DNA of 64,000 nucleotides from an uncultured Alphaproteobacteria bacterium (GTDB lineage Bacteria > Pseudomonadota > Alphaproteobacteria > Bin95). Shown here one piece after another: positions 11,092 to 64,000 of this stretch. The number at the start of each line of letters is the position of its first letter. Within the stretch, counting starts at the first letter, position 1. Location of the stretch: NCBI GenBank assembly GCA_938083135.1, contig CALLKY010000029.1:2087-66086 (forward strand), given 5' to 3'. The notes beneath the pieces were generated by a model. The model searched no databases, had not been told where the DNA came from, and saw only the letters and a list, made by a program, of their open reading frames with translations. The translations under genes were made by a program, and so were the position numbers.

Positions 11092-11118
11092 TTTCGTTTC
11101 GCTGCCTGGAGTCCGCCT

Positions 11119-16244: not shown

Positions 16245-16272
16245 CAGTGCAAAGGCACGTTTGGAGCGGCGC

Positions 16273-17121
16273 ATGACGCGCGAAGACAATCCGGAATGGG
16301 CGGCAGACCCCCTGGCATTCCTGGCTGAGCTTGGCAAAGCCGATGACGAGGCTTTCGATCCTGGCGTCGCTGCGCTCGCCTTCGCCGCACTGAAGCGCCC
16401 CCACACAGCGTTCGGCCGTTACGAGGCGCATCTGCATGAGTTGGCGAATGCGGCTGCGGGACATGCCGCACATACCGGCACGGCAGCGGAGCAGGCAGCA
16501 GCACTGACCCATGCGATCTATGAGAGCAACGGCTATTCGGGCGACACCCTAACCTATGACGACCTACAGAACGCCGACCTGGTGCGAGTCATTGATCGCA
16601 AAAAGGGCCTGCCGGTCGCTCTTGGAATTCTGTGCATGAGCGTCGCGTACCGGTTAGGCTGGAGCGTCGTTGGCTTAGCTTTTCCGGGGCATTTTCTGCT
16701 GCGTCTAGATCACGGCGGCGAACGCCTGGCGCTTGATCCGTTTGAAAGCGCCCGCGTGCTGGATGCTGCAGGGATGCGGGACCTGTTAAAGCGCATGCAA
16801 GGCGAGGGGGCCGAACTGACCGCAGAGCACTATCAGCCTGTCACAAACCGCGATGTGCTTCTGCGCCTGCAGAATAACATCAAACTCAGGCAGCTGCGCA
16901 CGGCTGATATTCCGGGGGCATTAGAGACGGCAGAGGCCATGCTCGCTTTTTCCCCAAGCACCGTTGAGCTTATGCGCGAAACGGCGATGATGCATATGCG
17001 GCTTGAGAATATCGGCCAGGCCATTCGTGGGTTCGAGCGTTACTTAGCTGCGGAGCCAGAAGAAGGCCTTCGCCATAAAGCGGCAAAACTGCTGCAAGAA
17101 CTCAAACTCCGGCTAAATTAG
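16273..17121 (+). CDS. Transglutaminase-like/TPR protein (SirB1, UPF0162-like)
   Basis: GLPVALGILCMSVAYRLGW and PGHFLLRL motifs, with TPR-like helices at the C-terminus. Confidence 0.55.
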   Translation: MTREDNPEWAADPLAFLAELGKADDEAFDPGVAALAFAALKRPHTAFGRYEAHLHELANAAAGHAAHTGTAAEQAAALTHAIYESNGYSGDTLTYDDLQNADLVRVIDRKKGLPVALGILCMSVAYRLGWSVVGLAFPGHFLLRLDHGGERLALDPFESARVLDAAGMRDLLKRMQGEGAELTAEHYQPVTNRDVLLRLQNNIKLRQLRTADIPGALETAEAMLAFSPSTVELMRETAMMHMRLENIGQAIRGFERYLAAEPEEGLRHKAAKLLQELKLRLN

Positions 17122-17149
17122 AATATCCGAAGCGGAAGGCGTTTAATCT

Positions 17150-18316
17150 TTGTTGATCAATCCATTATTGGCGTCTGTTGAGACGCCACCTGTCGCTTTG
17201 GTGCAAAGCTGGGTCAAAGAACGAGACTTCCCAGACGGACGCCCGCTGCTTGATCTCGCGCAGGCCGCGCCCGGATGGCCTATGGCTGCACCGCTGGTCG
17301 CTCACATCACAGAGGCCATCCAGAAACCTGAGACAGCACGTTATGCGCCGATCCTTGGAGAACAGCCCCTCCGTCAGGCGCTCGCTGATGAGATGACCGC
17401 ACTATATGGCGGTACCATCCAGGCGGAGAATGTAGCGATCACAAGCGGCTGTAATCAGGCCTATGTGGCGGCAATCATGGCGCTGGCCAAAGAAGGCGAT
17501 GCCGTGATGTTGCCCACACCTTGGTACTTCAACCACAAAATGACCCTGGATATGTTCGGCATTAAGGCTATCCCGCTCCCATGTGCAGCTGATGCCGGGA
17601 TGCTGCCGGACGTGGCGGCAGCAGAAAAGCTGATCACACCTCGCACCCGTGCAATCGTACTGGTGACGCCAAATAACCCAACGGGTGCGATCTATCCTTC
17701 GAGCCTCATTCAGCAGTTCGTGGCTTTGGCTAAAGCCCATAACATCAAGCTTATCATCGACGAGACCTACCGTGACTTCATTCCAGCAGGTGGCGCACCC
17801 CATGATGCGTTTAAGGCTGACACATGGGCCGATACGGTCATCCAGCTCTACAGCTTCTCCAAAGCCTATGCGATGCCGGGTTTGCGGGTCGGTGCAGTAA
17901 CGGCGGGCGCTGACGTGATCGGCCTCGTCCAGAAAGCGCTGGATTCCATTGCGATCTGTGCCAATGGTGCCGGGCAGGCAGCGGCGCTGTATGGCATTCG
18001 TTCGCTTGGCGAATGGAGAAATGGCAAGCGGCAGGAAATGGCGCTTAGGCTGGCTGCATTCCAACAAGCTATGAAACCTATCGCCAATCAATTCCCTATC
18101 GTTTCCGCTGGCGCCTTTTTCGCCTATTGCCGCCACCCATTTGAATTGTCCGCACTTGAGGCCGCAAAACGACTGGCAGATGAGGGCGCTATCATGGCGA
18201 TGCCTGGCTCTGCATTTGGGCCGGGGCAGGAGCAGATGCTGCGCTTTGCGTTTGGAAACCTAGCGCCGGAAGCAGCAGCAGCTATCGGGGAACGTTTGGC
18301 CGCACTCGCCCGGTAA
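17150..18316 (+). CDS. Class I/II PLP-dependent aminotransferase
   Basis: NPTG, YSFSKAYAMPGLRVG (PLP-lysine region), about 390 aa. Confidence 0.85.
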   Translation: MLINPLLASVETPPVALVQSWVKERDFPDGRPLLDLAQAAPGWPMAAPLVAHITEAIQKPETARYAPILGEQPLRQALADEMTALYGGTIQAENVAITSGCNQAYVAAIMALAKEGDAVMLPTPWYFNHKMTLDMFGIKAIPLPCAADAGMLPDVAAAEKLITPRTRAIVLVTPNNPTGAIYPSSLIQQFVALAKAHNIKLIIDETYRDFIPAGGAPHDAFKADTWADTVIQLYSFSKAYAMPGLRVGAVTAGADVIGLVQKALDSIAICANGAGQAAALYGIRSLGEWRNGKRQEMALRLAAFQQAMKPIANQFPIVSAGAFFAYCRHPFELSALEAAKRLADEGAIMAMPGSAFGPGQEQMLRFAFGNLAPEAAAAIGERLAALAR

Positions 18317-18392
18317 AGTTTTACTTGTTCCGAGGCGTCTGGTTCGCGCATTCTGCGGCAAAGAACAATTACGCCTGTTTGGGAGCATCCTG

Positions 18393-20150
18393 ATGGCCGA
18401 ATATTCTGCCCCGCTAAAAGAAATGCAGTTCGCACTTGAAGCCGTCGCAGGCCTCAAGGCTCTCACCCAACTCCCTGGCTTCGAAGATGCCCAGCCGGAC
18501 CTTGTGGCCGCTGCACTTGATGAAGCAAACAAGCTGGCGAATGGCGTGATATCCCCATTGCAGCGGGTCGGCGATATGCACCCTCCCGTGATCGAGAACG
18601 GCGTTGTCCGCACCTCACCTGGCTGGATCGACGCCTATAAGCAATATATTGAGGGCGGATGGAACGGACCTTCCGCTGATCCAGAGATCGGTGGCGGTGG
18701 ACTGCCCTCAGCCGTCGGAATGGCGCTGAATGAAATGTGGGGCTCCGCCTGCATGGCATTTTCGCTGGGGCCATTGCTGACCCAGGGCGCGATTGACCTG
18801 CTGGAAGCGCATGGGACGGACGCCCAAAAGGCAAAATACCTCCAAAAAATGGTCTCTGGCGAATGGACCGGCACGATGAACCTGACTGAGCCACAGGCTG
18901 GATCAGACGTCGGTGCTCTTCGCAGCCGCGCCCGCCCAGAGGGTGATCATTACCGCGTATCCGGCCAGAAGATTTTCATTTCCTATGGCGATCACGACAT
19001 GACCGAAAACATCATCCACATGGTGTTGGCCCGTATTGATGGCGCGCCTGAAGGTATTCGCGGCGTGTCGCTATTCCTCGTGCCGAAATTCCTCGTGAAT
19101 GATGATGGCACAATCGGTGCGCGGAATGACCTGCGCCCAGTATCGCTGGAACACAAAATCGGCATTCATGGCAGCCCAACCTGCGTGATGTCCTATGGAG
19201 ATAATGAGGGAGCCAAAGGCTGGCTGGTCGGCAAAGAGAATGGCGGCATTCAGGCCATGTTCACAATGATGAATAATGCCCGCCTTGGGGTTGGCTTACA
19301 GGGCCTTTCCATTGCGGAGACAGCGTTGCAACAGGCGACTGCCTTCGCGGCTGAACGGCGGCAGGGCAAGGACATTCAAACTGGCGAAGACAACGTACCA
19401 ATTGACCAGCATCCAGATGTGAAGCGCATGCTCGTCAACATGCGTGCTGAAACAGAAGCCATGCGTGCGCTCTGCTATTGGGTGGCTGCGCGTCTGGACG
19501 AGTCTCGGTTCATGCCCGATGCAGAAGACAAAGCGAAATCCCAGCGGATGTTGGATCTGCTGATCCCGGTCGTGAAGGCCTATTCCACGAACCGTGGCGT
19601 TGAGGTTGCCTCTACCAGCATTCAAATCCATGGCGGCATGGGCTTCATTGAGGAAACCGGTGTCGGCCAAGTTTGGCGGGACAGCCGCATTGCGCCAATC
19701 TATGAGGGTGCGAACGGCGTCCAAGCGATGGATCTACTTGGCCGCAAGCTTGGGCGCGACCAGGGTGCAGCCATGGGTGAGCTGATTGCTGATATTCGTT
19801 CAGAACTGGATGCCATCGGCGGCGATCTTGCGGCGACCAAAGAGCAGGTGCTTGAAGGCGTCAACGCCATGGAGCGCGCGACGGCCGGCCAAGTGGCAGC
19901 CTTCAATGATCGCATTGGTATCGCAGCCGCTGGTGCAGCCGATTACCTTGACCTGACAGGACGGGTTGTCTGCGCCTGGTTGCTTCTAAAGGGTGCGGCG
20001 GCGGCTCGGGATTGGGCGGCCGATGATGCGGCATTTGCAGAAAACCGCATCGCCATCGCCCGCTACTTCGCCACCCGTATGTTACCGCCTGCTATAGCAC
20101 TCGCAGCGACCATGGAAGACAGCGCAGAAGCCGTCATGGCCGTCGCGTAA
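18393..20150 (+). CDS. Long-form acyl-CoA dehydrogenase (about 585 aa, FadE/AidB-like with a C-terminal extension)
   Basis: MNLTEPQAGSDVG, GQKIFIS, and an ACAD C-terminal domain. Confidence 0.85.
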   Translation: MAEYSAPLKEMQFALEAVAGLKALTQLPGFEDAQPDLVAAALDEANKLANGVISPLQRVGDMHPPVIENGVVRTSPGWIDAYKQYIEGGWNGPSADPEIGGGGLPSAVGMALNEMWGSACMAFSLGPLLTQGAIDLLEAHGTDAQKAKYLQKMVSGEWTGTMNLTEPQAGSDVGALRSRARPEGDHYRVSGQKIFISYGDHDMTENIIHMVLARIDGAPEGIRGVSLFLVPKFLVNDDGTIGARNDLRPVSLEHKIGIHGSPTCVMSYGDNEGAKGWLVGKENGGIQAMFTMMNNARLGVGLQGLSIAETALQQATAFAAERRQGKDIQTGEDNVPIDQHPDVKRMLVNMRAETEAMRALCYWVAARLDESRFMPDAEDKAKSQRMLDLLIPVVKAYSTNRGVEVASTSIQIHGGMGFIEETGVGQVWRDSRIAPIYEGANGVQAMDLLGRKLGRDQGAAMGELIADIRSELDAIGGDLAATKEQVLEGVNAMERATAGQVAAFNDRIGIAAAGAADYLDLTGRVVCAWLLLKGAAAARDWAADDAAFAENRIAIARYFATRMLPPAIALAATMEDSAEAVMAVA

Positions 20151-52037: not shown

Positions 52038-52481
52038 TTACAGATGCGCTAGAGCTTCCAGCACTTCTTCTGGATGCTCTGCCGGTTTCACCGTATCAAA
52101 GCGGCGGACGACCTTGCCGTCCGGTCCAATCAATACGGAAATCCGGGTCGGGCGGGGCGATTCATCATTCGCCGCGCCGTACGCGATCGACATGCTCTTA
52201 TCCGTGTCCGACAACAGGTCGAATGGGAAATCAAACTTGTCTTTAAAGGCTTTGTTGTCACTGGGCGCATCGAAGCTGCAGCCCATTACAACCACTTCAT
52301 TTGATTGAAAATCTTGGATTCTGTCACGGAACCCTTTGCCTTCAATCGTTCAACCAGGCGTATTCGCCTTGGGGTACCACCAGATCAGCACATACTTGCC
52401 AGCTTGGTCGCTCAAAGAAACTTGAGCGCCATCCTGGTTCGACAGGCTGAATCCGGGGGCCGTTTCACCAACCCCTGCCAT
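52038..52481 (-). CDS. bcp: Bcp/PrxQ-type peroxiredoxin with TGA at the peroxidatic Cys codon. This is either a candidate selenoprotein or a nonsense pseudogene.
   Basis: ATG (rc 52479..52481) with GGAG 7 nt upstream. The translation is collinear with E. coli Bcp (YPKANTPG[TGA]TIEGKGFRD versus YPKAMTPGCTVQACGLRD). TGA lies at plus 52350..52352. The ORF track reports only the 85-aa tail (52038..52295). Confidence 0.6.
52303..52347 (-). other. Hairpin starting 3 nt downstream of the in-frame UGA of bcp (SECIS-like candidate)
   Basis: mRNA GAUUGAA-GGCAAA-GGGUUC-CGUGACA-GAAUCC-AAGAUU-UUCAAUC. It has a 7-bp lower stem, a 6x6 internal loop, a 6-bp upper stem with one G.U pair, and a 7-nt loop. Confidence 0.4.
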
Positions 52482-52502
52482 TTGCCGTTCTCCTTCAGTG
52501 AT

Positions 52503-52627: not shown

Positions 52628-55600
52628 ATGCGCACACGTTTAACCGTACTGGGAATAATATTCGCTTCATTCCTCGTAACTGGCGCGGCGCAGGCAGCTG
52701 ACCCAAGTTTCGATTGCGCCAAAGCATCAACAAATGTCGAAAAGCTGATTTGCGGTGACGATGCCCTAGCGGCGCAAGATGCCGCCATGGCGGATGCCTA
52801 TCGCAATGGCCGAAGGGTCTTGAGCGGCACCCGTCTTGATCGACTAAAACGGACGCAACGCTCATGGGCCAGAAGCCGCGCAGAAGCTTGCCCAGCAACG
52901 GCCGACCCAAAGGCACGCCAGGCGGCGACAGCATGTCTTGCAGGCATCTATGATACGCGAACAGACGCTATTTTTGCGATGACAGCACGCTCAATGCTGC
53001 GGCAGCCAACAGCATCAATTGAAGCTGATAGGCGCTCGCCGCTCGTTTGCGTAACGTTCGATGCAAAATTGGATGCGAAGCAACCGGCAGCGCTCGAAAC
53101 CTATGTATCCAGCAAGAATGGGGCGAAGCTTGCGGCGCGCATCAATGACAATCAGCTCTGCGTCGAAGGCTTTCCCCACGGCCAGGAAGACCAGCTGACA
53201 ATCTATGCAGGCCTGCGCGGCTCCAATGCAATGCTGCGGAAGGCGCAGACCGTTGACCTCGACGTGCCAGATCGCCCACGCCGTGTTGCGTTCCCATCCT
53301 CCGGCCTGATCCTGCCACTAACAGGGTCCGCTGGGTTGCCCATTGAAACCGTCAATCTGGATAAAGTCCGCGTCCTGGTGTTGCGGGTCGATGACCGCGA
53401 TGTCGTCGCCAATCTCCGCCGTGGGCTAATCGGTCAGCAGGTCAGCTATAATGAAGTTGGCCGTGCCGCCAGTAAGCTTGGCCGAAATGTCTGGACCGGC
53501 GATCTATTAATCGACAGCAAACAGAATCAATCCGCCAGGACTGCCCTGGCAATCGGCGATGTCATGCCGGATCTGAAGCCTGGCGTTTACTTGGCCGTAG
53601 CGGAAGATCCAGAAACTGATTTCCACGACGCCTATTGGGCGACGGCACAATGGTTTGTCGTATCTGATATCGGCCTGACCGCCTTCCAAGGCCTCGACGG
53701 ATTGACAGTTGCAGTCAGATCACTCAGCTCCGCGTTGCCTCAGGCTGGCGCAAAGCTTGTGCTGAAGTCCAATGATGGTGCCGACTTGGCCACCGTCACA
53801 TCTGATGCTGAGGGGCTTGGAAAGTTCGATATTGGTTATTTGCGCGGCCAAGGCAATGCAACGCCACATTCTGTCCTGGCTTACGGAGAGGCGGGCGACT
53901 TTGTTTATCTGGACCTCAACCGCTCATCACTCGATCTGTCAGATCGTGGCGTTGATGGCAGGCCAGCGCCGGGGGCGCTTGATGCCTATCTGAGGACGGA
54001 ACGCGGCGTTTATCGTCCTGGGGAGCCCGTACATTTCACTGCATTGCTCCGCTCCCCCAATTCCACCGCTGTCGAAAGCCAACCGCTAACATTGCGTGTT
54101 GTCCGCCAGGATGGACTTGAAGTCTATCGGTGCTCACTCCGCGATATGGGAGCAGGCGGATACTCCGCAACCATTTCACTGCCGCCCACAGCAGCAACCG
54201 GCAAATGGCGCGCAAGCCTGCATGCGTCTGCAAAGGGCGAAGCCATCGGGGCTACCAGCTTCTTGGTGGAAGACTTTGTTCCACCACGCATTGAAGCCAC
54301 CGTCGAAGCAAATCGCGATGGCCAATCCATCATAGCGACGGTCCAGGCAGATTTTTTGTATGGTGCCCCAGCAGCCGATATTCCGGTTGAAGTCGCAGCC
54401 ACGGTTCGTGAAGCACGGAATCCAGCGCCCGCCTTCAAAGGCTATAAATTCGGGCTCGCCCAGGAATCCACCGTAACGGGTGTCAGGCTTGGTTTAGGCT
54501 TGGGCGAAACAGACGAAAGCGGTGCAGCAGCGATCGCGGTCGATTTGGACGACCTTCCTGCCACCACGCGTCCACTTGAGGCTGAAATCAAGGCCAGCGT
54601 CTTTGATGTTGGCGGCAGGCCGATCATTGCGCGAACAACAGTCTCTTTGAAGAACTTACCGCAACTAATTGGCGTCAAACCATTATTTGAAGATGGCGGC
54701 ATTCAGCAAGGGGCTGTGGCCAGCTTCAATATCGTGGCCCTTGATGCATCCGGGACGCCAGAAGCCAGAACGCTAGAATATGCGATTATTCGGGAGGAGT
54801 ATGAGTATATCTGGTTTGATGCGGGCGGCCGCTGGGATTACCGGGTCCAATACCTGGATGCAGGCCTTGTTGACGCTGGCACGCTCACCATTGCCACTGA
54901 TACTCCAGCGCTCGTCTCCAGGCGCTTCGATGATTGGGGCCGCTTCCGCCTGGATGTGACCGATCCAGCCACTGGTGCCGCTACCAGCGTGCGCTTCCAT
55001 GCAGGCTGGTGGGGTGCGGGCGCAGGAGCGGACCCGGCACCGGACAAAGTGAAAATCGTCGTCGGCCCAGGCCCCTATAATCCTGGAGACAGCGTTCGGG
55101 TGACGATTGAACCGCCGTTCGATGCCCAAGTCATGGTGACGGTCGCTGATAGCGCCGTGCACTCGACCGAAATGGCGGCGATCCCGGCATCTGGTGGTGA
55201 AATCACTGTAAAACTGCCTGATGCAGGTGCCGCAGGTGTCTATCTGCTAGTCAACGCGTTTGGCCAAGCTGATGGCGAGCGCACGCAAGCCCCCCGCCGG
55301 GCTATCGGCGCACAATGGATCGCCTTTGATCCCGCACCAAGAACGCTAGATGTAGCGATGCAAGCGCCCGAGGCAACGGAGCCTGAGCGGCAGGTGAACG
55401 TGACTGTGCAGCTTGGCGCCGACGCCGCAGGCGACCCGGCCTATGTGACAGTCGCTGCTGTTGATGATGGCGTGCTTGGCCTCACAGGCTACAAATCACC
55501 CGACCCAGAGGCCTATTTCCTTGGCAAACGCCGCCTTGGTTTGGCATTACGTGACGTATATGGCCAGTTCATCGACGCAGCAGGATCTGTCGTGGGTAGG

Positions 55601-57679
55601 GTGCGAAGTGGTGGTGATGCGGAGGCTGACGCGAACGCCAACCAGCTTTCCAATCTGCCGAAGAAGACCCAGCCGGTGCTGGCGATTTTTAGCGGCATTG
55701 TGCTAACGGACCCATCTGGCAAAGCCGTTATCCCACTGAACCTTCCAGATTTCACAGGCCGCGTCCGCATCATGGCCCAGGCCTGGAACCAGGAGCGCGT
55801 CGGTGCCGCTGAATCCACTATGCTCGTGCGCCGTCCCGTGGTCGCAACCATGGCGATGCCGCGGTTCTTAAGCCCGAATGATACTGCAGATATCAGCATA
55901 TCTATCCGCAACCTTTCTGGCCTTGCAGGCGAATACCGTGCCGAGCTGACAACATCCGGCGTGATTGGCGCACCGGAAAACGCCGTTCTGACAGCAAATC
56001 TGAAGCCTGGCGACCCAGATGCACGTGCAGCCTTCGAAGTGCTGGCGATTGCACCCGGTGACACTGAAATGATGCTGACTGTCACGGGGCCAAACGGTAG
56101 GGTTTTCGAACGCCGCCGGACCATTACCACGCGCCCAGCGGCAGCCACACAAACCCGGAAGTTCCTCACCAAGCTCAAGCCCGGCAAATCACTGACGGTT
56201 GATCCATCTCTCCTGGACGGTCTGTATCCTGAAACAACAAATGTCGTGCTTGGCGTTAATCCGTTGCCAGACTTGGATTTGCCGTCGATTTTGGCAGGTC
56301 TATCCAGGTATCCCTACGGCTGCGCTGAACAGACGACATCCAAGGCAATGCCGCTGCTTCATGTAAAGGCGCTCCAAAGTGCATTACGGATCAGCCATGC
56401 TGGCCCACCAGCAGATGCCGTGGACAAAGGCGTCCTGCGGTTACTGGGGATGCAGTCCAGCAGCGGCGGATTCGGTTTCTGGAATAGCCAAAGTGAAGCC
56501 GGTGTATGGATTTCAGCCTATGTCACTGACTTCCTGGTTGATGCAAAACAGGCTGGCTACGCAGTACCCCAAGCCGCATTAGACAGAGCGTTGACGCGCT
56601 TGAGCGGCCTGGCGGATATCCGTTACCGGTTCGATAGATCACCGGAGGGTACGGGTGCCGCATATGCGCTTTATGTCAAGGCAAAAGCGGGCGTGGCTGA
56701 TCCAGCCCGGGTCCGTCGGTTTGCGGCGCAGCTCCCAAGCATGAAGCCAACCAGCCTTGGTCGCGCATTTGTTGCAGCCAGCCTCTCTGCCGTTGGCGAT
56801 AGGGGCAGGGCGCGCGCACTGTTCGCAACCATTCCAATGACCTCAAAGGCACAGAATGACGCGCACTACTACACCTATGGCTCCAATGTTCGGAATGCAG
56901 CTGCAATTTTGGCGCTGATGGCGGCAAGCCAGGATGTGGACTGGCCAGTGCTTGAAGCGCGCGCGGAGGTGCTCTCTGCCATGGTGCATGAGCGTCGCTG
57001 GCTCTCAACCCAGGAGCAGGCATGGATCGTTAAAGCGGCAGCGGGCCTTACTGGCGGCGACGCAAGCAATGTCGCTATCGGTGTTGACGGCGTGAACGTG
57101 ACGCTTGGTGGTGGGCAAGGTCTTTACCGGACTGTGTCCGCAACCAACATCGCATCCGCCCCCAGGATGGTGAACAACAGTGACCGCCAGATTACAGGCC
57201 TTGTCACGGTAACAGGATCGCCAAGCCAGGCGCTGCCTGCAGCCCAGCAAGGCTTCACAATTGAACGGACGCTGTTCACCGCTGATGGATCGCCCTTGGA
57301 CCCCAGCAAAGTGCGCCAGAACGATATTGTCGTTGTAACGCTGAAAGGCCAAATGATCGCGAAGGGCAGGGCACGCGCTTTGGCCGTGGATTACTTGCCT
57401 GCTGGGCTTGAACTAGAAAACGCCAAACTTGGTGGTGATGATCTAGGGGCCTATGGCTGGCTTGGTGCCGTCACCATGCCAGAGCATGTTGAACTGCGTG
57501 ATGACCGCTATATCGCCCAGGTAAACCTATCGCAGAAGGGGGAGTTCCGCGTTGCCTATATCGCCCGCGCCGTAACACCTGGCCACTTCGCCCACGGCGG
57601 CGCGCATATCGAAGATATGTACCAGCCGGAACAGTTTGGCCGGGGTGCGGCGACATCGATTGTGATTAGCAAACGCTAG
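52628..57679 (+). CDS. Bacterial alpha-2-macroglobulin family protein (thioester type)
   Basis: 1683 aa with a signal peptide, MG-domain repeats and a GCAEQ thioester motif. It is followed 10 nt later by pbpC, the classic A2M-PBP1C pairing. Confidence 0.9.
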   Translation: MRTRLTVLGIIFASFLVTGAAQAADPSFDCAKASTNVEKLICGDDALAAQDAAMADAYRNGRRVLSGTRLDRLKRTQRSWARSRAEACPATADPKARQAATACLAGIYDTRTDAIFAMTARSMLRQPTASIEADRRSPLVCVTFDAKLDAKQPAALETYVSSKNGAKLAARINDNQLCVEGFPHGQEDQLTIYAGLRGSNAMLRKAQTVDLDVPDRPRRVAFPSSGLILPLTGSAGLPIETVNLDKVRVLVLRVDDRDVVANLRRGLIGQQVSYNEVGRAASKLGRNVWTGDLLIDSKQNQSARTALAIGDVMPDLKPGVYLAVAEDPETDFHDAYWATAQWFVVSDIGLTAFQGLDGLTVAVRSLSSALPQAGAKLVLKSNDGADLATVTSDAEGLGKFDIGYLRGQGNATPHSVLAYGEAGDFVYLDLNRSSLDLSDRGVDGRPAPGALDAYLRTERGVYRPGEPVHFTALLRSPNSTAVESQPLTLRVVRQDGLEVYRCSLRDMGAGGYSATISLPPTAATGKWRASLHASAKGEAIGATSFLVEDFVPPRIEATVEANRDGQSIIATVQADFLYGAPAADIPVEVAATVREARNPAPAFKGYKFGLAQESTVTGVRLGLGLGETDESGAAAIAVDLDDLPATTRPLEAEIKASVFDVGGRPIIARTTVSLKNLPQLIGVKPLFEDGGIQQGAVASFNIVALDASGTPEARTLEYAIIREEYEYIWFDAGGRWDYRVQYLDAGLVDAGTLTIATDTPALVSRRFDDWGRFRLDVTDPATGAATSVRFHAGWWGAGAGADPAPDKVKIVVGPGPYNPGDSVRVTIEPPFDAQVMVTVADSAVHSTEMAAIPASGGEITVKLPDAGAAGVYLLVNAFGQADGERTQAPRRAIGAQWIAFDPAPRTLDVAMQAPEATEPERQVNVTVQLGADAAGDPAYVTVAAVDDGVLGLTGYKSPDPEAYFLGKRRLGLALRDVYGQFIDAAGSVVGRVRSGGDAEADANANQLSNLPKKTQPVLAIFSGIVLTDPSGKAVIPLNLPDFTGRVRIMAQAWNQERVGAAESTMLVRRPVVATMAMPRFLSPNDTADISISIRNLSGLAGEYRAELTTSGVIGAPENAVLTANLKPGDPDARAAFEVLAIAPGDTEMMLTVTGPNGRVFERRRTITTRPAAATQTRKFLTKLKPGKSLTVDPSLLDGLYPETTNVVLGVNPLPDLDLPSILAGLSRYPYGCAEQTTSKAMPLLHVKALQSALRISHAGPPADAVDKGVLRLLGMQSSSGGFGFWNSQSEAGVWISAYVTDFLVDAKQAGYAVPQAALDRALTRLSGLADIRYRFDRSPEGTGAAYALYVKAKAGVADPARVRRFAAQLPSMKPTSLGRAFVAASLSAVGDRGRARALFATIPMTSKAQNDAHYYTYGSNVRNAAAILALMAASQDVDWPVLEARAEVLSAMVHERRWLSTQEQAWIVKAAAGLTGGDASNVAIGVDGVNVTLGGGQGLYRTVSATNIASAPRMVNNSDRQITGLVTVTGSPSQALPAAQQGFTIERTLFTADGSPLDPSKVRQNDIVVVTLKGQMIAKGRARALAVDYLPAGLELENAKLGGDDLGAYGWLGAVTMPEHVELRDDRYIAQVNLSQKGEFRVAYIARAVTPGHFAHGGAHIEDMYQPEQFGRGAATSIVISKR

Positions 57680-57689
57680 GATATTTAGC

Positions 57690-59735
57690 GTGCGGCGATG
57701 GTGCAGATATCTCGCAGGGGGCTTGGTCGGCGTTGGCATTGGGCTATGCGCACTAGACCTTGCAGCCCCGCCGCCGCTGGAGCGGTTTAATGACCGCTCG
57801 CTTGTCGTTGCCGATAGATCAGGTGCGCCGCTACGCATCTTCCAAAGCGCAGACGATAAATGGCGGCTGCTGACACGCCCGACGGATGTCGACCCGCTGT
57901 ATCTGGCCATGCTTAAAGCCTATGAGGATAAGCGCTTTGACCAGCATTGGGGCGTTGATCCGCTGGCGATAGGTCGCGCTGCCGGGCAGGCGATTGGGGC
58001 GGGACAAATCGTTTCCGGCGCATCAACCCTAACGATGCAGGCTGTGAAACTGCTCTCGCCTAGACCACGGACACTTTTGGCAAAGGCGATTGAGATGGGC
58101 CGGGCGGTTCAACTGGAATCTCGTCTTGCCAAAGATGATGTTCTGGCCATCTACCTCACACTGGCGCCGTTCGGTGGACCAGTGGAGGGCGTTCGGGCGG
58201 CGTCCCTCAAGCTTTTCGGCCACGAACCCTCGCTGCTGACGCCCGCAGAGGCCGCTCTACTGATCGCGATACCGCAATCGCCAAACGCCCGCCGGCCTGA
58301 TCGCCAACCGTCACAGGCGAAAGCTGCGCGTGCTCGCGTCCTGGACCGCGTGATGAAAGCAGGCGTGATCACGGCGGAGGCTGCCGAAACCGCCAAAAAC
58401 GCACCCCTACCCACCGGCTATGCCAATTTCCCACTTCACGCACCACATTTCGCAGAAGCGCAATCAGCGACCTCAGATACAGCCCACACCACGCTAGATG
58501 GACGACTGCAGAAATTGGCCGAGGTCAGGCTCCGTGCAGCGCTTCAAGATCATGCGTCCCCAGCAACGGCTTCCGCCATGATCGTCCATGCGCCGACCGC
58601 GGAAATCCGCGCAATCGTTGGCAACCCAAACTACTTTGACACCAAGCGCGCCGGCATGACGGATATGACGCTGCCACTTCGTTCTCCAGGGTCTGCGCTG
58701 AAGCCCTTTATATACGGCCTGGCGTTTGATCGGCTCGTCGCCGCACCCGGAACGCTTATTCATGACCGGCCTTGGCGGTCAAAGGGCTACGCGCCCACCA
58801 ATTTCAGTGGAGAATGGGCCGGAGAAGTCACGATCCGGGATGCATTGACGCGCTCACTCAATGTACCAGCGGTCAAAGTCCTGGGCCGTATTGGACCCGC
58901 CCAATTTGATGCAGCACTGGCGACTGCTGGCATTAACCTGACCTTTGATCGCGAGCGAGGCGATGCTGGGCTGGCGCTAGCGCTTGGCGGTGTTGGCGTT
59001 TCTATGCGGGATATGGCCAGGCTTTACGTCGGCCTGGCATCTGGCGGACACGTGCCGGACGTACTCGCAACCACACAAGGGCAAGCGGTTAATTGGGTGG
59101 AGCTTCTGGCACCGGAAGCCGCATCACAAGTGCTGACGATTTTGAAGGAAGCGCCCCCACCAACCGGGCAGACAGTTACAGCCGCAGCGTCAAGACAAAG
59201 CACATCCCGCATCGCCTTCAAAACCGGTACATCCTATGGCTATCGCGACGCTTGGGCGGCAGGCGTCATCGGTGAATATGTTGTCATTGCCTGGGTAGGG
59301 CGGGCAGACGCAGCCCCTTGCGCTGGATGTGTGGGTATTGGTGCGGCGGCACCAATTCTATTTGACCTTGCAGAACTGATCGAAACGCCGGGGCGAATGC
59401 ATCACGTCCCGGCTATTGCTAAAGCGCCGCCACCGCATCTGGCGCATTTCGATGGAGCGGAACGGCGGAATATATCAGCAGGGCCGCCAGTACGGATCAG
59501 CTTTCCGGTAGATGGTGCCCGCATGCGTCTGGGCAGGAGCGGACGGGCACCGCTAACGGCATTGGGCGGCTTACCGCCATACCGTTGGCTCACCAATGGC
59601 GCGCCCGCAGGCAATTCAGCGCCGGGCCGCTCATTGCCTTGGGCACCGAACGGCGGCGGGTATCATGAGGTGGTCGTGATCGACAGCGCGGGTGCGGAAG
59701 CCTCCGCGCGTGTGTTCATTGATGCTGGGTCATAG
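57690..59735 (+). CDS. pbpC: Penicillin-binding protein 1C (glycosyltransferase plus transpeptidase)
   Basis: N-terminal TM helix, a GT51-type region (QAVKLLSPRPRTLLAKAIE), the SALKPF transpeptidase motif (SxxK), and a C-terminal PbpC domain. Confidence 0.9.
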   Translation: MRRWCRYLAGGLVGVGIGLCALDLAAPPPLERFNDRSLVVADRSGAPLRIFQSADDKWRLLTRPTDVDPLYLAMLKAYEDKRFDQHWGVDPLAIGRAAGQAIGAGQIVSGASTLTMQAVKLLSPRPRTLLAKAIEMGRAVQLESRLAKDDVLAIYLTLAPFGGPVEGVRAASLKLFGHEPSLLTPAEAALLIAIPQSPNARRPDRQPSQAKAARARVLDRVMKAGVITAEAAETAKNAPLPTGYANFPLHAPHFAEAQSATSDTAHTTLDGRLQKLAEVRLRAALQDHASPATASAMIVHAPTAEIRAIVGNPNYFDTKRAGMTDMTLPLRSPGSALKPFIYGLAFDRLVAAPGTLIHDRPWRSKGYAPTNFSGEWAGEVTIRDALTRSLNVPAVKVLGRIGPAQFDAALATAGINLTFDRERGDAGLALALGGVGVSMRDMARLYVGLASGGHVPDVLATTQGQAVNWVELLAPEAASQVLTILKEAPPPTGQTVTAAASRQSTSRIAFKTGTSYGYRDAWAAGVIGEYVVIAWVGRADAAPCAGCVGIGAAAPILFDLAELIETPGRMHHVPAIAKAPPPHLAHFDGAERRNISAGPPVRISFPVDGARMRLGRSGRAPLTALGGLPPYRWLTNGAPAGNSAPGRSLPWAPNGGGYHEVVVIDSAGAEASARVFIDAGS

Positions 59736-60836
59736 ATCCAACGTCATCTGAGACCCTGGCAATTTTGGTGCTACGAACTTTGTCGTATCTAACCATGCAT
59801 CTTCATCACGCGGATCAAGCTCCAGGCGCGCCCGGGCCTTCCTGAACCGATCCCGGATGATTTCTGCGTAAGCACCTGCACCTGCCATACGGCTGCCGAA
59901 ATTCGCGTCATTCCACTTGCCGCCACGGGCGGACCTTATTAGGGACAACACTTTGCTGCGCCTATCCGGATAGTGCGCTGTCAGCCATTCATCGAACAGG
60001 TCTTTTACCTCAAGCGGGAGGCGCAGCAGGATGTAACGGGCTGCCATCGCCCCAGCATCTGCTGACTGAGAGAGTATCTGCTCAAGCTCATGGTCTGTCA
60101 GGCCCGGAATGATGGGTGCTACATTGACGGCGACGGGTATATTCTGAGCCGCCAAAGTTCTGATTGCTGCGATGCGTCTATGAGGCGACGCAGCGCGCGG
60201 CTCCATGGTCCGCGCCATGGTTCTATCCAGCGTCGTGACAGAGATTGTTACGTGAACCAGCTGCTCTGCCGCCATATCTTTCAGGATATCGATGTCCCGC
60301 AGCACTGCATCAGATTTAGTCGTGATCGTGACCGGGTGGTGCGTATCCCGCAGCACCCCGAGAACGTCCCGCATGATCCGAAGCCTGCGTTCGATTGGCT
60401 GATAGGGGTCCGTATTTGTGCCAATGGCGATCAGTTTTGGGGTGTAATTCTTCGCCGCAAGTTCCCTTTGCAGCAATTCAGCCGCATCCTCTTTCGCAAA
60501 GAGGCAGCTTTCAAAATCCAAACCCGGGGACAGGCCAAGCCAAGCGTGGGTTGGTCTGGCAAAGCAGTAGACGCAGCCGTGCTCACATCCCCGGTAGGGG
60601 TTGATAGAACGATCAAAGGAAATATCCGGCGACTTATTGGTGGTGATGATCGATTTCGATGTATCGCGCCCAACGGTGGTCCGCAGCGGCGGCGAATCAT
60701 CTAATTCAGTTGGCCAGCCATCATCGTCCGCCTCGACTACATAGGGTTCAAAGCGACCAGCGCGATTCCCAACGGCACCACGGCCTTTGATCTGCAGGGA
60801 AGGTGCAGATGGTTGGATAGTCTGTCGTTCTTCCAT
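59730..60836 (-). CDS. Radical SAM protein, PA0069 / SplB-like (COG1533) family
   Basis: CEHGCVYC (CX3CX2C). The ORF 59730..60935 most likely starts at MEERQTIQ (60836). Confidence 0.7.
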   Translation of the reverse strand: MEERQTIQPSAPSLQIKGRGAVGNRAGRFEPYVVEADDDGWPTELDDSPPLRTTVGRDTSKSIITTNKSPDISFDRSINPYRGCEHGCVYCFARPTHAWLGLSPGLDFESCLFAKEDAAELLQRELAAKNYTPKLIAIGTNTDPYQPIERRLRIMRDVLGVLRDTHHPVTITTKSDAVLRDIDILKDMAAEQLVHVTISVTTLDRTMARTMEPRAASPHRRIAAIRTLAAQNIPVAVNVAPIIPGLTDHELEQILSQSADAGAMAARYILLRLPLEVKDLFDEWLTAHYPDRRSKVLSLIRSARGGKWNDANFGSRMAGAGAYAEIIRDRFRKARARLELDPRDEDAWLDTTKFVAPKLPGSQMTLDL

Positions 60837-60876
60837 GCGCGAAACATAACACGAATATAGAACAAAGAAAGAATAA

Positions 60877-61896
60877 TTATGCCCAATCTTCCGCCGCAGC
60901 CAAAATTCCAGCTTCAGACAGGCTTGCATCAACATGAGATCTGAAATGTGACGCAGCCTCTTTGCCCAGCCGCTCCGCCGACCATGGCCCCTGAACCGCC
61001 GATTCCTTTCGCCATTTCATGAAGAAGCTGATCGTTCGCAACCACACCGCCCGACGCGCCATCAAAATCCTCGGCTCTGCCATTGCAGCGACAGATGCCG
61101 GAACAGCTTCTAACCATGCATCGACAAACGCCTGACGATCGGCCGCTGTAAGTACGAGGCCTGCAGCAGGGTCCCAAGCTGAAGAAATACCAATTACGGC
61201 ATGGGCGAGGTCAATCGTTGGGCAGGTATATGCTGGCTTTTCGAGGTCAACAAACACCGCCCGACCGTCATCCAGCATGCGGAAATTGCCGGGATGGGCG
61301 TCACTCACCGTCAAGCAAGAAGTTGTCGCGCCCATGTCGTGCCGCGCAGTCGCTATCAACCACTGCAGGCGGTCCTCAATCATCGCCTGGCCTTTGGCGG
61401 TCAGACCGGCGGAGCTCAGATACACCTCTAATGTTGCTTTCACATTGGCGGCCAGGGGCACAAAGGGATTCATGTGATGGAGAATAGGCGCGCGTTCAGA
61501 ATGCTTTGGGATCGGCAAGCTGTGAATGGCCGCAAGCGCGCGGGCCATATCAGGCAAGTCAGCAGCCGACTGTGGTAAGCGACCGTCAATCCGCTCAACA
61601 ATCAAGCCACCCCGGGGAAGCGCTTCGGAGACGGGCAGAATTGCCTTCAGCTTCGGCGTAGCGCCAGACGGTGCAGCCCGCTCAAAGGCTGCTGCTTGAA
61701 TAGCGAGTTGCCCGGCGGCTTCCATCCCAGATTGGCTGAGATGTGCTGCTCTCAAGATCCAATCCGTACCGGTAATACGATAGTGGTTATGGCTGACGCC
61801 AGTTCCTGGCATAAGCTCCAGCTCTGCATCAGGGAACCCAATGGCAGAAAGATCAGCGGCCAGCGCAATGGAAAGCCGTGCTGCAGAATTAGACAT
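60877..61896 (-). CDS. Aminoglycoside-phosphotransferase-fold (APH/choline-kinase-like) kinase
   Basis: VSDAHPGNF (HxDxxxxN catalytic loop) and FVDLEKP (D-x-E). Confidence 0.65.
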   Translation of the reverse strand: MSNSAARLSIALAADLSAIGFPDAELELMPGTGVSHNHYRITGTDWILRAAHLSQSGMEAAGQLAIQAAAFERAAPSGATPKLKAILPVSEALPRGGLIVERIDGRLPQSAADLPDMARALAAIHSLPIPKHSERAPILHHMNPFVPLAANVKATLEVYLSSAGLTAKGQAMIEDRLQWLIATARHDMGATTSCLTVSDAHPGNFRMLDDGRAVFVDLEKPAYTCPTIDLAHAVIGISSAWDPAAGLVLTAADRQAFVDAWLEAVPASVAAMAEPRILMARRAVWLRTISFFMKWRKESAVQGPWSAERLGKEAASHFRSHVDASLSEAGILAAAEDWA

Positions 61897-61917
61897 TATG
61901 AATAGCACTCGGGAGGC

Positions 61918-62613
61918 TTGATTGGATTAGATATGGTGAAGCCTAGTGACATTTCCATCATCATTCCCGCCCTAAATTGCAGAGCTCTTATAGACCAGCT
62001 TTTGCCCAGCGCCTTAAGCCTTTCTAACGACGTGATTGTTGTTGATGGCGGATCAACGGATGGCACAGAGAATGCCGCTACAGACTTAGGCGCAACCGTC
62101 ATACAGGCCGACCGAGGCCGGGGGCAACAATTAGCATCGGGCGCTGATATGGCCAGCAATGATTGGCTGCTTTTCCTCCACAGCGATACACAGCTGCCAG
62201 CATCTGCCGGAGATGTGATGCGGAGATTTATTGAAGCTTCCGAGAACCTGCAGAAAGCGGGATATTTCGAACTCCGGTTCGACGATCAAAGCCGCAGGGC
62301 GCGGTTTATAGCAGGCATGGCCAACTGGCGGTCGCGAACGCTTGGGCTTCCCTATGGGGACCAAGCACTGCTGATCAGTCGCGCTTTCTATGAGGAAATT
62401 GGGGGGTACAAAACGATTCCGCTGATGGAGGACGTAGATTTAATTCGGCGTATCGGTCGCAGAAACCTATGCCCGCTTGATGGGACCGTCATCACTTCAG
62501 CTGCAAAATATCGCCGGGATGGGTGGATGCGACGCTCGGTCCGCAATCTCTTTTGCCTCAGCCTCTATTTTCTGGGCATTGCTCCAGAAAAGATTGCGAG
62601 AATTTATGGATAG
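61918..62613 (+). CDS. GT2-family glycosyltransferase, TIGR04283-like ('transferase 2, rSAM/selenodomain-associated')
   Basis: ISIIIPALN...VVDGGSTDGT...LFLHSDT. A short (about 230 aa) GT-A enzyme whose stop overlaps the next gene. Confidence 0.65.
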   Translation: MIGLDMVKPSDISIIIPALNCRALIDQLLPSALSLSNDVIVVDGGSTDGTENAATDLGATVIQADRGRGQQLASGADMASNDWLLFLHSDTQLPASAGDVMRRFIEASENLQKAGYFELRFDDQSRRARFIAGMANWRSRTLGLPYGDQALLISRAFYEEIGGYKTIPLMEDVDLIRRIGRRNLCPLDGTVITSAAKYRRDGWMRRSVRNLFCLSLYFLGIAPEKIARIYG

Positions 62614-63247
62614 GCGAAACCGACCAGGCCCAAGGCGCGCACGCGCACGGTTATCCCAAACTGTAATCCTGTTTGCCCGAACGGTCCGGCTGGGGCGCGG
62701 CAAGCGACGGCTAGCGCGAGATATTGGAGATATAGGCGCGTGGCGGTTTTATCGTGCGGCGCTTCATCAAAGTTTGCGAATAGCGGCCCAACATCCATGC
62801 AGGACGGTGATAGCAGTCCTTGACCCTATCGCCGATGTATCTACACCGGGACAGCCCTTCACTGGCGCGCTGAATAGTAGACTTCAAGCAAGACCGCAGG
62901 GCAGGGGTGATCTTGGCCAACGGATGGTGCGCGCTCTGAACCAAGCGCCTCCAGGTCCGGCAATTCTAATTGGTGCGGATATTCAAGGCCTAACAAGCGC
63001 CGCACTTGGCCGTGCTTTGAAGGCAAATATCTCCGCAAACATTGTGTTCGGCCCGGCGACTGATGGTGGGTTCTGGTTGCTTGGCACTCGCGCTGGGCTG
63101 TCCGTCCGGCAATTTAAGACGGTAGGCTGGTCTGAACCGACAACGCTGGCGCAATCCGTTAACGCATTTCCCACGGCCAAGCGCGTTCATTTCGTCGATA
63201 TATTGTCCGATGTGGATTCAATGGAGGATTTAGCCAAGTTTTCTTAA
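62606..63247 (+). CDS. DUF2064 / TIGR04282-like nucleotidyltransferase-fold protein ('transferase 1')
   Basis: ILFARTVRLGRGKRRLA (the ...AK.P.pG.vKTRL pattern of DUF2064), GPATDGGFWLLG. The ATG overlaps the GT stop (ATGGATAG). Confidence 0.6.
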   Translation: MDRRNRPGPRRARARLSQTVILFARTVRLGRGKRRLARDIGDIGAWRFYRAALHQSLRIAAQHPCRTVIAVLDPIADVSTPGQPFTGALNSRLQARPQGRGDLGQRMVRALNQAPPGPAILIGADIQGLTSAALGRALKANISANIVFGPATDGGFWLLGTRAGLSVRQFKTVGWSEPTTLAQSVNAFPTAKRVHFVDILSDVDSMEDLAKFS

Positions 63248-63310: not shown

Positions 63311-64000
63311 ATGCGCGGCTCGATTGACGGTAAGGACGAGACTGAAATTCCCGCACGCCCATCCAAATTTATCTTCGCGGCGGCGGCGATCTTACTTGCA
63401 GGCGCTGTTGGCGTGGGCGCACTCGCGTTTCGTGCCATCCCGCAAGAAGTGCCGGACCTGCGCGCGCCTACAGCAGCACTGGCTACAGCGCGTGCGTCTG
63501 CTGCTGCGCAGGCTATCTCGCAGAAGGTCGCAAGTGTCCGGCTGATGCTCGAGGCGTTGGCAGAGAAGGGCGGTGCTCGGCCTGGCAGGCGCAATGCCAC
63601 TCGATTCGCCATCCGCGCCTTCAAGAAAATTGACGGTCTGGAGCAGTTGGCGGCCTATAGCCTTAATGGCAAGACTCGATGGGCGATGCGGCCAGCGAGT
63701 AGCGGGTCCATGATGTTCCCAAACTCCAAGAGCTTTCTAGTTGCGCATTTGGACGTGCCAGAAATTGGTGCCCGTGTCGGCGCGCCTTTCCAGCCCGGTG
63801 GGTCAAAAGTTTGGTGGACCCCGATCACCTATCTCATTCCCAACCGCAAGGGTGAGCCGTACGCGATCCTGACAGCGTTTATGAATCAGAAGACGTTCAT
63901 TCCGCTTATGCGCGCTGCTGGCGAATCCGCCGCGTTACTGACCGGCGGCGGCAAGCTCATAACCGGCGCACCTGTAGAGGCAGCGCCGCTTGGCGCTTCC
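63311..64000 (+). CDS. Partial (5' portion) membrane-anchored protein with a periplasmic sensor-like (Cache-like?) domain
   Basis: GGAG RBS, ATG 63311, TM segment FIFAAAAILLAGAVGVGALAF. It is an open frame with no stop through 64000, so it is absent from the ORF track. The antisense ORF 63292..63624 was rejected. Confidence 0.45.
   Translation, partial: MRGSIDGKDETEIPARPSKFIFAAAAILLAGAVGVGALAFRAIPQEVPDLRAPTAALATARASAAAQAISQKVASVRLMLEALAEKGGARPGRRNATRFAIRAFKKIDGLEQLAAYSLNGKTRWAMRPASSGSMMFPNSKSFLVAHLDVPEIGARVGAPFQPGGSKVWWTPITYLIPNRKGEPYAILTAFMNQKTFIPLMRAAGESAALLTGGGKLITGAPVEAAPLGAS

Follow-up and report, generated by a model that had tools for sequence, protein, structure and literature searches.

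A predicted kinase, nucleotidyltransferase-fold protein and glycosyltransferase pathway beside a PA0069-family radical SAM gene in an alphaproteobacterium

We describe a divergent four-gene cluster in a 64,000-nucleotide stretch of alphaproteobacterial DNA (the window, by which we mean the whole stretch analysed) that may encode a pathway for the activation and transfer of a small molecule, with a probability that we put at about 0.5. Three core enzymes, an APH-fold kinase, a DUF2064 protein and a short family 2 glycosyltransferase (GT2), would act in series on a substrate made or tailored by a PA0069-family radical SAM (rSAM) protein. That the three core genes serve one pathway is very probable on comparative evidence. 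Their gene fusions and the several orders in which they occur mark them, as judged from sequence, as a firm functional unit, which the first-pass annotation had not singled out. For the rSAM, the odds of membership in this pathway are about even, since it is also found without the transferases and its structural model lies closest to spore photoproduct lyase.

The four open reading frames have the coordinates and strands given in the first-pass annotation, apart from the start of the GT2 gene (Table 1). Close homologues of this protein are 226 aa long, as is the product called on the source contig, so the true start is probably the ATG. The gap between the divergent kinase and GT2 start codons is then 36 nt; with the TTG start it is 21 nt. 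An 8-nt overlap of the GT2 stop with the DUF2064 start (ATGGATAG) was noticed earlier and is present, and 40 nt separate the kinase stop from the rSAM start. Neither a promoter-like site above chance nor an Rfam match was found in the intergenic region. All four genes, independently called, are carried together by four public metagenome contigs. The window proteins retain the positions conserved at 90% or more in 56–110 homologues, with intact catalytic motifs in every protein of the cluster, and none of the four matched a PADLOC anti-phage defence model.

Table 1. Features of the cluster, in window coordinates
Feature	Position	Strand	Remarks
PA0069-family rSAM, 368 aa	59730..60836	-	Second gene of minus-strand pair; NF033668 match and CX3CX2C motif
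APH-fold small-molecule kinase (predicted), 339 aa	60877..61896	-	PF01636; small uncurated family
Divergent intergenic region, between kinase and GT2 start codons	61897..61932		
GT2, TIGR04283-family short GT-A glycosyltransferase, 226 aa	61933..62613	+	Alternative TTG start at 61918
DUF2064, nucleotidyltransferase-fold protein, 213 aa	62606..63247	+	PF09837; translationally coupled to GT2

The evidence for a common pathway comes from a gene-neighbourhood comparison of about 175 related loci. DUF2064 lies directly 3' of GT2 in 68 of the 80 loci sampled by GT2, and one or both of these genes lie within 10 kb of the kinase in 35 of the 80 genomes sampled by kinase, a link present in almost all clades of the kinase tree. 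The full set of four genes occurs together in 7 of these 80 genomes, with frequent pairwise links, so the architecture recurs in related genomes and is not peculiar to the window. Across alpha-, beta- and gammaproteobacteria, the three core genes take at least five arrangements: the kinase divergent from GT2-DUF2064; GT2-DUF2064-kinase on a single strand; kinase-YnjB-YnjC-YnjD-GT2-DUF2064, in Halomonadaceae; the kinase ahead of a GT2~DUF2064 fusion; and GT2 ahead of a DUF2064~kinase fusion. A GT2~DUF2064 fusion of 447 aa in Hydrogenophaga (L013) scores 266 bits with TIGR04283 and 200 bits with TIGR04282. DUF2064~kinase fusions were found in P0247 (587 aa) and P0269 (563 aa), and a 40-kb contig bears out the former, with a TIGR04283 GT2 immediately ahead of it. 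The gene next after the kinase belongs, in 34 of 80 loci, to a YnjBCD-like ABC importer, an arrangement consistent with salvage of a substrate taken up from outside.

The kinase belongs to a small family (179 representatives at E ≤ 1e-30 among 1.84 billion sequences). It matches the APH family PF01636 at 43.8 bits (gathering cutoff, 23.2), and no NCBIfam family at E ≤ 0.01, including the curated models for MtnK, AmgK, ThiK, homoserine kinase II and choline kinase. A sequence search of the PDB, even with a family profile, gave no match. The HxD...N and DxE motifs first read from the sequence are borne out as D199-x-H-P-G-N204 and D217-L-E219, with D199, N204 and D217 invariant in the family. 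The AF2 model (pLDDT 91) places the protein in the APH/choline-kinase fold by Foldseek and has no specific structural neighbour, with comparable matches (TM 0.5–0.65) to APH(2''), to choline kinases and to a steroid kinase.

For the transferases, the first-pass assignment to TIGR04283 and TIGR04282 holds at cutoff for GT2 and narrowly falls short for DUF2064. GT2 scores 220.4 bits against TIGR04283 (cutoff, 182) over the full profile length and conserves the DGGSxD, HxD and ED motifs, whereas DUF2064 scores 126.1 bits against TIGR04282, 8 bits below the cutoff of 134. The latter clearly matches PF09837 (79.8 bits; gathering cutoff, 25.8) and PDB 3CGX (E = 5e-8) and keeps the GxxKxRL, GDLGxRM, GxD and DGG motifs. 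GT2 partners in other gene contexts score 200–266 bits with TIGR04283. With TIGR04282, other DUF2064 partners score 124–143 bits (L090, L083, L154, L044 and the P0269 fusion) or 173–200 bits (L053, P0247 and L013). Weak matches link the pair to cofactor systems that likewise involve rSAM enzymes: DUF2064 to CofC, the 2-phospho-L-lactate guanylyltransferase of F420 synthesis (23.9 bits; cutoff, 105), and GT2 to MftF of mycofactocin (43.6 bits; cutoff, 280). One locus (L126) has CofH directly upstream of GT2-DUF2064, but the window holds no other genes of either system.

From these family assignments, we infer an order of reactions. The kinase would phosphorylate a hydroxyl of a salvaged or endogenous small molecule, most likely at the anomeric position of an unusual sugar. 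DUF2064, with its CofC/MobA-like nucleotidyltransferase fold, would convert the phosphate ester into an NDP-linked donor, from which the short GT2 would pass the activated group to an acceptor. The PA0069 rSAM would probably make or tailor the substrate, and would be one of several rSAMs that can stand in for one another beside GT2-DUF2064 pairs. Sugar salvage in two steps, with a kinase and a nucleotidyltransferase that are sometimes fused, is familiar from FKP (fucokinase/GDP-fucose pyrophosphorylase), HldE and AmgK-MurU, and MtnK and NahK are APH-fold anomeric kinases. Our loci resemble these systems in the genetic coupling, and also fusion, of a kinase with a nucleotidyltransferase-fold protein, and a glycosyltransferase and often an importer stand alongside. 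They differ in that there is no sequence membership, the kinase being without an NCBIfam match, and in that the DUF2064 activity here is a predicted one.

The identity of the rSAM is clear. It matches the PA0069 model NF033668 at 506.8 bits (cutoff, 360) over profile positions 1–347 of 348 and PF04055 at 68 bits, which agrees with the initial view that the partner belongs to this family rather than to ArsS/TIGR04167. The CX3CX2C motif reported before is present as CEHGCVYC (C84-x3-C88-x2-C91) and is invariant in 18 aligned and 56 locus-derived homologues; no other open reading frame of at least 150 aa in the window has such a motif. Among the loci sampled by kinase, 25 of 80 have its gene next after the kinase; among the informative loci sampled by GT2, 31 of 64 have it directly divergent from GT2. 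Every adjacency of PA0069 with GT2 or the kinase falls in one alphaproteobacterial synteny block, with the order UDG-SLT-MoaB-[DUF2064<GT2]-[kinase]-[rSAM]-[CPA2]-RNase HII-CcrM-MutY, in which dozens of loci place the rSAM. Other junctions of this block, presumably non-functional, are retained about equally (MoaB beside DUF2064 in 17 of 42 loci, block genes past the rSAM in 7 of 15), and membership of the rSAM in the pathway is therefore uncertain.

The same observations allow a different explanation, which we hold as possible at somewhat less than even odds: the pathway would consist of the kinase, DUF2064 and GT2 only, and the rSAM would be an unrelated, spore photoproduct lyase-like enzyme acting on DNA or nucleotides, which has stayed where it is because gene order is inherited across a conserved alphaproteobacterial stretch with many DNA-maintenance genes. 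Besides the similar retention of all block junctions, its structure points this way, as the best match of the AF2 model (pLDDT 77) is spore photoproduct lyase (SplB, PDB 4FHC; TM 0.57/0.61, 18–19% identity), compared with about 0.4 for other rSAMs, and both share a CX3CX2C rSAM core. [quoted passage not shown] PA0069 is also found without nearby GT2, DUF2064 or kinase genes in Paracoccus, Shinella, Ralstonia, Azospirillum brasilense, Methylobacterium and locus L175, and a search for DUF2064 on replicons with such a lone rSAM gave no match (for example, in a 4.6-Mb Shinella record). Conversely, the core trio can lack PA0069, as in Halomonadaceae and loci L002, L005 and L026. Against this explanation, an rSAM of some family adjoins GT2-DUF2064 pairs in most sampled loci, so that the alphaproteobacterial case would have to be a coincidence. 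Moreover, the rSAM-GT2 junction persists in eight loci, forming at least three independent groups, in which the other flank of the rSAM has changed, and also in the lineage of the window itself; it has thus outlasted at least three to five independent rearrangements of that flank. The resemblance to spore photoproduct lyase is also one of fold only: the NCBIfam scan at E ≤ 0.01 returned no model of that enzyme, and the organism does not form spores.

GT2-DUF2064 pairs are also found beside rSAMs of other families: an Rv1681/ArsS-like 'rSAM-X' in seven loci, an rSAM/SPASM family (c34) in an operon with the kinase, and a TrsS-like rSAM or CofH in single loci each. They bear on the arsenosugar-type biosynthesis with which the transferase pair had been linked in the first-pass annotation. 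In its specific form, this link would make the cluster an arsenosugar pathway with the PA0069 rSAM in place of ArsS, which we consider very improbable. ArsS-type clusters (TIGR04282 and TIGR04283 proteins, a TIGR04167 rSAM and a phosphoesterase, named 'rSAM/selenodomain-associated transferase 1/2' and now arsenosugar biosynthesis) do have the same transferase pair and an adjoining rSAM, and the GT2 passes, and DUF2064 nearly passes, the respective cutoffs. ArsS is reported to adenosylate dimethylarsenite, yielding 5'-deoxy-5'-dimethylarsinoyladenosine, and a route from a derived 5-deoxyribose to a riboside through a kinase, a nucleotidyltransferase and a glycosyltransferase would be chemically reasonable. 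In contrast to ArsS-type clusters, the cluster here has a PA0069 rSAM with an SPL-like fold and an APH-fold kinase, neither it nor the source contig contains a metallophosphoesterase, and a YnjBCD-like ABC importer is frequent in related loci. No arsenic gene was seen in it or among the annotated neighbour gene clusters. An arsenic role is unsupported because the three types of partner rSAM that were scored on NCBIfam all stay below the TIGR04167 cutoff (best, 61–63 versus 300 bits); the window rSAM has no match to this model, and the window contains no second rSAM. The suggestion that the kinase replaces the phosphoesterase fits our small sample, in which only two clusters (L148 and L166) had a metallophosphoesterase, both lacking the kinase and having a different rSAM. 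The transferases form a very large family, in which 7,163 of the 8,000 candidates scored gave significant matches, and our literature search found no experimental work on TIGR04283/TIGR04282 transferases, only papers that repeat the annotation.

A part in selenium (or other chalcogen or metalloid) metabolism, raised from a Bcp peroxiredoxin gene 7.4 kb away, is just as improbable: that gene does have an in-frame TGA at the catalytic Cys position, the Halomonadaceae operon runs on into genes for a VTT/DedA-FAD disulfide oxidoreductase fusion and for an oxidoreductase of the TIGR03169 'N-terminal to SelD' family, and a TIGR03169-like gene lies directly upstream of GT2 in L090, but these redox genes are missing from the window and the alphaproteobacterial block, SelD, SelA, SelB and tRNA genes were not found in the window, the hairpin that follows the Bcp TGA does not stand out from shuffled sequence (z = -0.8), and nothing was found to tie Bcp to the cluster, so that the link stays as speculative as it was.

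Overall, the fusions and gene orders delimit a compact pathway of three predicted enzymes that is open to testing, and the kinase family, being small and clean, offers the easiest way in for experiments. The partners across the approximately 175 loci, namely a dedicated kinase, an ABC importer and non-ArsS rSAMs, indicate that the database name 'arsenosugar' is probably too specific for most TIGR04283 and TIGR04282 members. Automated annotation gives both families the name 'arsenosugar biosynthesis', and papers cite the annotation 'arsenosugar biosynthesis glycosyltransferase' as evidence of arsenic detoxification. A broader and unlikely idea is that GT2-DUF2064-kinase sets are a general route by which 5-substituted 5-deoxyriboses become NDP-sugars and then ribosides, the deoxyriboses being scavenged from outside the cell or left by an adenosylating rSAM reaction that draws on the adenosyl moiety of SAM, with PA0069, 'rSAM-X' and c34 as alternative adenosylating enzymes. 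If true, arsenosugar chemistry would be one case of a scheme that also serves non-arsenic substrates, and the product would represent a class of metabolites or envelope modifications that is widespread in Proteobacteria and has gone unrecognised.

The four genes of the first-pass annotation, a PA0069-family radical SAM (rSAM) protein and an APH-fold kinase divergent from a GT2 glycosyltransferase and a DUF2064 protein, were all found in the ORF list at the positions and on the strands described there (table), and the 8-nt overlap (ATGGATAG) shared by the GT2 stop and the DUF2064 start was confirmed. Kinase stop and rSAM start are separated by 40 nt. Because GT2 is 226 aa long both in close homologues and as called independently on the source contig, its true start is probably the ATG at 61933; with that start, the divergent kinase/GT2 gap is 36 nt. 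The GT2 belongs to TIGR04283 as predicted, and the assignment of its partner to TIGR04282 held only in part, since the score falls below that model's cutoff and clears that of PF09837. The kinase gave no NCBIfam match in the curated-model scan and is recognized by the Pfam APH model. Among window ORFs of at least 150 aa, the rSAM alone carries a CX3CX2C motif, and the window proteins keep the family residues that are at least 90% conserved.

Positions of the cluster, its surroundings and related genes (L-numbers, compared loci; scores and cutoffs in bits)
Feature	Sequence	Position	Strand	Basis or score
rSAM (PA0069 family)	window	59730-60836	-	ORF list; NF033668 (PA0069) 506.8, cutoff 360
APH-like kinase	window	60877-61896	-	ORF list; PF01636 (APH) 43.8, cutoff 23.2
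GT2, short glycosyltransferase	window	ORF 61918-62613, probable start ATG 61933	+	ORF list, homologue lengths; TIGR04283 220.4, cutoff 182
DUF2064 protein	window	62606-63247	+	ORF list; TIGR04282 126.1, cutoff 134 (below); PF09837 79.8, cutoff 25.8
Bcp/AhpC-type peroxiredoxin	window	52038-52484, in-frame TGA 52350-52352	-	
Alpha-2-macroglobulin (bacterial, 1683 aa), then PBP1C (681 aa)	window	52628-59735	+	
337-aa predicted membrane protein	window	63311-64000, runs off window end	+	
GT2-DUF2064 fusion (447 aa)	L013	2378-3721		TIGR04283 266, TIGR04282 200
DUF2064-kinase fusion P0247 (587 aa)	L170	8001-9764		TIGR04282 183.8
Halomonadaceae operon	L016, L020, L027, L042, L048, L053 and others	about 10001-19300		
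c34 rSAM/SPASM (365 aa)	L014, L015, L019, L022, L037, L039, L040, L047, L058, L072	about 8900-9950		
c34 rSAM/SPASM	L150, L154			
rSAM-X	L166	9887-10834		
rSAM-X	L147	4139-5047		
rSAM-X	L085	2582-3484		
rSAM-X (fusion)	L148	11328-13331		
CofH	L126	1-1218		TIGR03551 517
Class II aldolase/adducin family	L149	2492-3256		PRK07490 371
Class II aldolase/adducin family	L132	3671-4417		PRK07490 371
Spurious antisense ORF	L147	4060-5076		empty family scan

Strong comparative evidence suggests that kinase, DUF2064 protein and GT2 act in one pathway, because their genes occur in five distinct orders across three proteobacterial classes and have also been fused. Linkage and fusions are both observed directly in the comparisons. 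A single Hydrogenophaga protein combines GT2 and DUF2064, and in P0247 and P0269 (563 aa; DUF2064 part 134.7 bits on TIGR04282) an N-terminal DUF2064 domain precedes a C-terminal kinase domain. On a 40-kb contig, P0247 can be translated as called and immediately follows a TIGR04283 GT2 (265 bits); 2.4 kb away from this fusion is a gene for an inosine-uridine nucleoside hydrolase. Two long rSAM proteins, P0390 and P0391, were ruled out as fusions, being assembly or frameshift artefacts.

From an alignment of 17 kinase homologues (A1) we fetched 80 genomic loci with 10-kb flanks and mapped neighbour features by tblastn, our own ORF calling having given spurious antisense ORFs in GC-rich loci (one, in L147, is listed in the table). 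GT2, DUF2064 or both are encoded within 10 kb of the kinase in 35 of these loci, the PA0069 rSAM directly downstream of it in 25, and none of the three in 11; all four genes occur together in seven (L001, L008, L012, L018, L031, L036 and L068), which bears out their co-conservation. Linkage to GT2/DUF2064 appears in nearly every clade of a neighbour-joining tree of 91 kinases. The kinases form a small family with clear limits: of 1.84 billion cluster representatives, 179 match at E ≤ 1e-30 and 692 at E ≤ 1e-3.

Further kinase partners emerged when neighbour ORFs were clustered and the clusters annotated. Directly after the kinase, 34 of the 80 loci have a YnjB-type substrate-binding protein (PRK11622, 548 bits), a fused double permease and an ATPase. 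The Halomonadaceae operon runs kinase-YnjB-YnjC-YnjD-GT2-DUF2064, then a VTT/DedA-FAD pyridine-nucleotide-disulfide oxidoreductase fusion (718 aa) and an oxidoreductase of the 'N-terminal to SelD' family TIGR03169 (312 bits versus a cutoff of 310), with no rSAM within 10 kb. In Rhodobacterales, the gene before the kinase encodes an uncurated rSAM/SPASM protein (cluster c34); in Roseovarius and relatives it stands directly upstream of the kinase and a YnjBCD-like transporter. One metagenome-assembled genome (MAG; JAKUPN01, loci L004 and L044) has two kinase paralogues, one in a MoaB-kinase-CPA2-RNase HII block without rSAM and one in a GT2-DUF2064-kinase-YnjB-YnjC operon. As a substrate hint, Foldseek of the kinase model returned the generic APH/choline-kinase fold alone; PDB sequence searches with the kinase, its profile, the rSAM and the YnjB-like binding protein gave nothing useful, and the N-terminal extensions of kinases P0262 and P0319 had no match.

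Sampling from the transferase side, with 16 GT2 homologues (alignment A2), yielded 80 metagenome loci, in 68 of which DUF2064 follows GT2. Upstream sequence of 400 bp or more makes 64 loci informative about the divergent neighbour of GT2: this is the PA0069 rSAM in 31 and the kinase in 11, and within 10 kb the PA0069 rSAM is present in four more and the kinase in three more. In L156, whose upstream flank is too short for this count, the kinase comes just after DUF2064. Many of the remaining loci have another rSAM. One such protein, rSAM-X (~305 aa, uncurated; best NCBIfam match the Rv1681 family at 80-95 bits versus a cutoff of 380), adjoins GT2-DUF2064 in seven loci (L085, L090, L094, L113, L147, L148 and L166). 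It is fused to a metallophosphoesterase in L148, and on a Roseomonas plasmid (L166) it is accompanied by a TrsS-like rSAM, DUF547, a phosphonate-type ABC transporter and a metallophosphoesterase. The c34 protein recurs in L150 and L154 (in the latter in the one-strand order GT2-DUF2064-c34-kinase-YnjB), and L126 encodes CofH, the rSAM subunit of F420 FO synthase, immediately before GT2-DUF2064 in the same orientation. With PA0069, rSAM-X, c34 and CofH as neighbours across loci, GT2-DUF2064 pairs are generically associated with rSAM genes.

In L149 and L132, GT2 and DUF2064 are separated by an inserted gene of the class II aldolase/adducin family; methylthioribulose-1-phosphate dehydratase and deoxy-sugar-phosphate aldolases also belong to this family in the wider sense. 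The best PDB sequence match of the GT2, 9OMH (fucosyltransferase WrtF), is only distantly related and was set aside as a guide.

Whether the PA0069 rSAM itself takes part in the pathway is finely balanced, and we put the probability at about 0.5, because its frequent divergence from GT2 is offset by block retention, rSAM-sampled replicons, its fold and the SOS literature. Feature maps, annotated records and gene calls reveal an alphaproteobacterial block (ETF-QO<, UDG, SLT, MoaB, [<DUF2064 <GT2], [kinase], [PA0069 rSAM], [CPA2 antiporter], RNase HII, CcrM, <MutY; < and > give strand direction) whose bracketed genes are independently present or absent, and all PA0069 adjacencies that we found lie inside this block or derive from it. 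The rSAM might be a mere syntenic neighbour of a kinase/DUF2064/GT2 pathway, a somewhat less probable reading that still deserves weight. Other block junctions are kept about as often: MoaB adjoins DUF2064 in 17 of 42 loci, and in 7 of 15 the rSAM has block genes on its far side. Five rSAM-sampled replicons (Paracoccus, Shinella (4.6 Mb), Ralstonia, Azospirillum brasilense and Methylobacterium) carry neither GT2 nor DUF2064 within 8 kb, and the three matches that DUF2064 gave in the plasmid collection include none of them; one of four long rSAM-sampled contigs has no transferases, and the window relatives L002 and L005 keep GT2-DUF2064-kinase without the rSAM. In its AF2 model (pLDDT 77) the rSAM most resembles spore photoproduct lyase (TM 0.57/0.61, versus ~0.4 for other rSAM structures), and COG1533 relatives have been described as SOS-regulated, which likewise counts toward a neighbour.

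Against this, the rSAM-GT2 junction outlasts a changed flank: it is kept in eight loci, from at least three independent groups, that lack RNase HII, CcrM and CPA2 beyond the rSAM, and also in L177 and in the window lineage, where MoaB, RNase HII and CcrM are all absent within 64-72 kb. That PA0069 stands beside GT2 by chance is unlikely, because these transferases generally associate with rSAMs. The block is class-wide (many loci of L003-L062 and L083-L160; L168 and L175-L178); MoaB and DUF2064 overlap by 32 nt at their 3' ends in L176 and L177, and MoaB and kinase by 4 nt in Azospirillum sp. B510 (L168).

The arsenosugar link raised at first pass found no support. The three partner rSAM types that were scored against NCBIfam all fell short of the cutoff for ArsS, the TIGR04167 rSAM known for dimethylarsenite adenosylation (rSAM-X scored 54-63 bits versus 300), and no arsenic genes occurred among the annotated neighbours. 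The literature searched held only propagated annotation on an arsenosugar role of the transferases, and no functional studies of TIGR04282, TIGR04283, DUF2064, PA0069 or ynjBCD.

The suggested selenium connection rests on two things, the in-frame TGA of the window Bcp gene and the redox genes of the Halomonadaceae operons, and neither ties selenium to the cluster. What stands is a candidate selenocysteine Bcp: its TGA takes the exact place of the peroxidatic Cys (WWYPKANTPG*TIEG), and gene callers split the gene into 43-aa and 82-aa ORFs on source contigs. The hairpin after this TGA was no better than shuffled sequence (z = -0.8).

Four public metagenome contigs carry the same four genes, and the closest genome match to the window is L001, an uncultured alphaproteobacterial MAG. 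The longest contig (72 kb) reads LptC/A/B, RpoN, HPF, PtsN, luciferase-like protein, 337-aa unknown protein, <DUF2064, <GT2, kinase>, rSAM>, <PBP1C, <alpha-2-macroglobulin, split Bcp and two SDR genes. PBP1C and rSAM stops are convergent with a 6-nt overlap. The 337-aa protein has no Pfam family; its gene, on the same strand as DUF2064 and 64 nt downstream, is shared only with the closest relatives (L001, partial, 49% identity; L171-L173). Rfam riboswitches or other RNA elements were absent from the window and nine related operons, a promoter and terminator scan gave nothing above shuffled expectation, and PADLOC returned 0 matches for the cluster proteins.

Kinase-nucleotidyltransferase fusions are a hallmark of sugar salvage, as in FKP and HldE, and anomeric sugar kinases with an APH fold include MtnK, NahK and AmgK. 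By analogy with these, we infer an order of kinase, DUF2064 and then GT2. In the likeliest mechanism, the kinase would phosphorylate a small molecule, possibly an unusual sugar, either imported or made in the cell; DUF2064 would turn the product into an NDP-linked donor, from which GT2 would transfer the activated group. An rSAM enzyme, here PA0069, would probably make or tailor the substrate.

Overall, the cluster is a variant of known, uncharacterised rSAM-associated transferase pairs, and the name 'arsenosugar' is doubtful for most members of TIGR04283 and TIGR04282. Kinase, DUF2064 and GT2 together define a testable pathway, for which the small kinase family offers an experimental handle.
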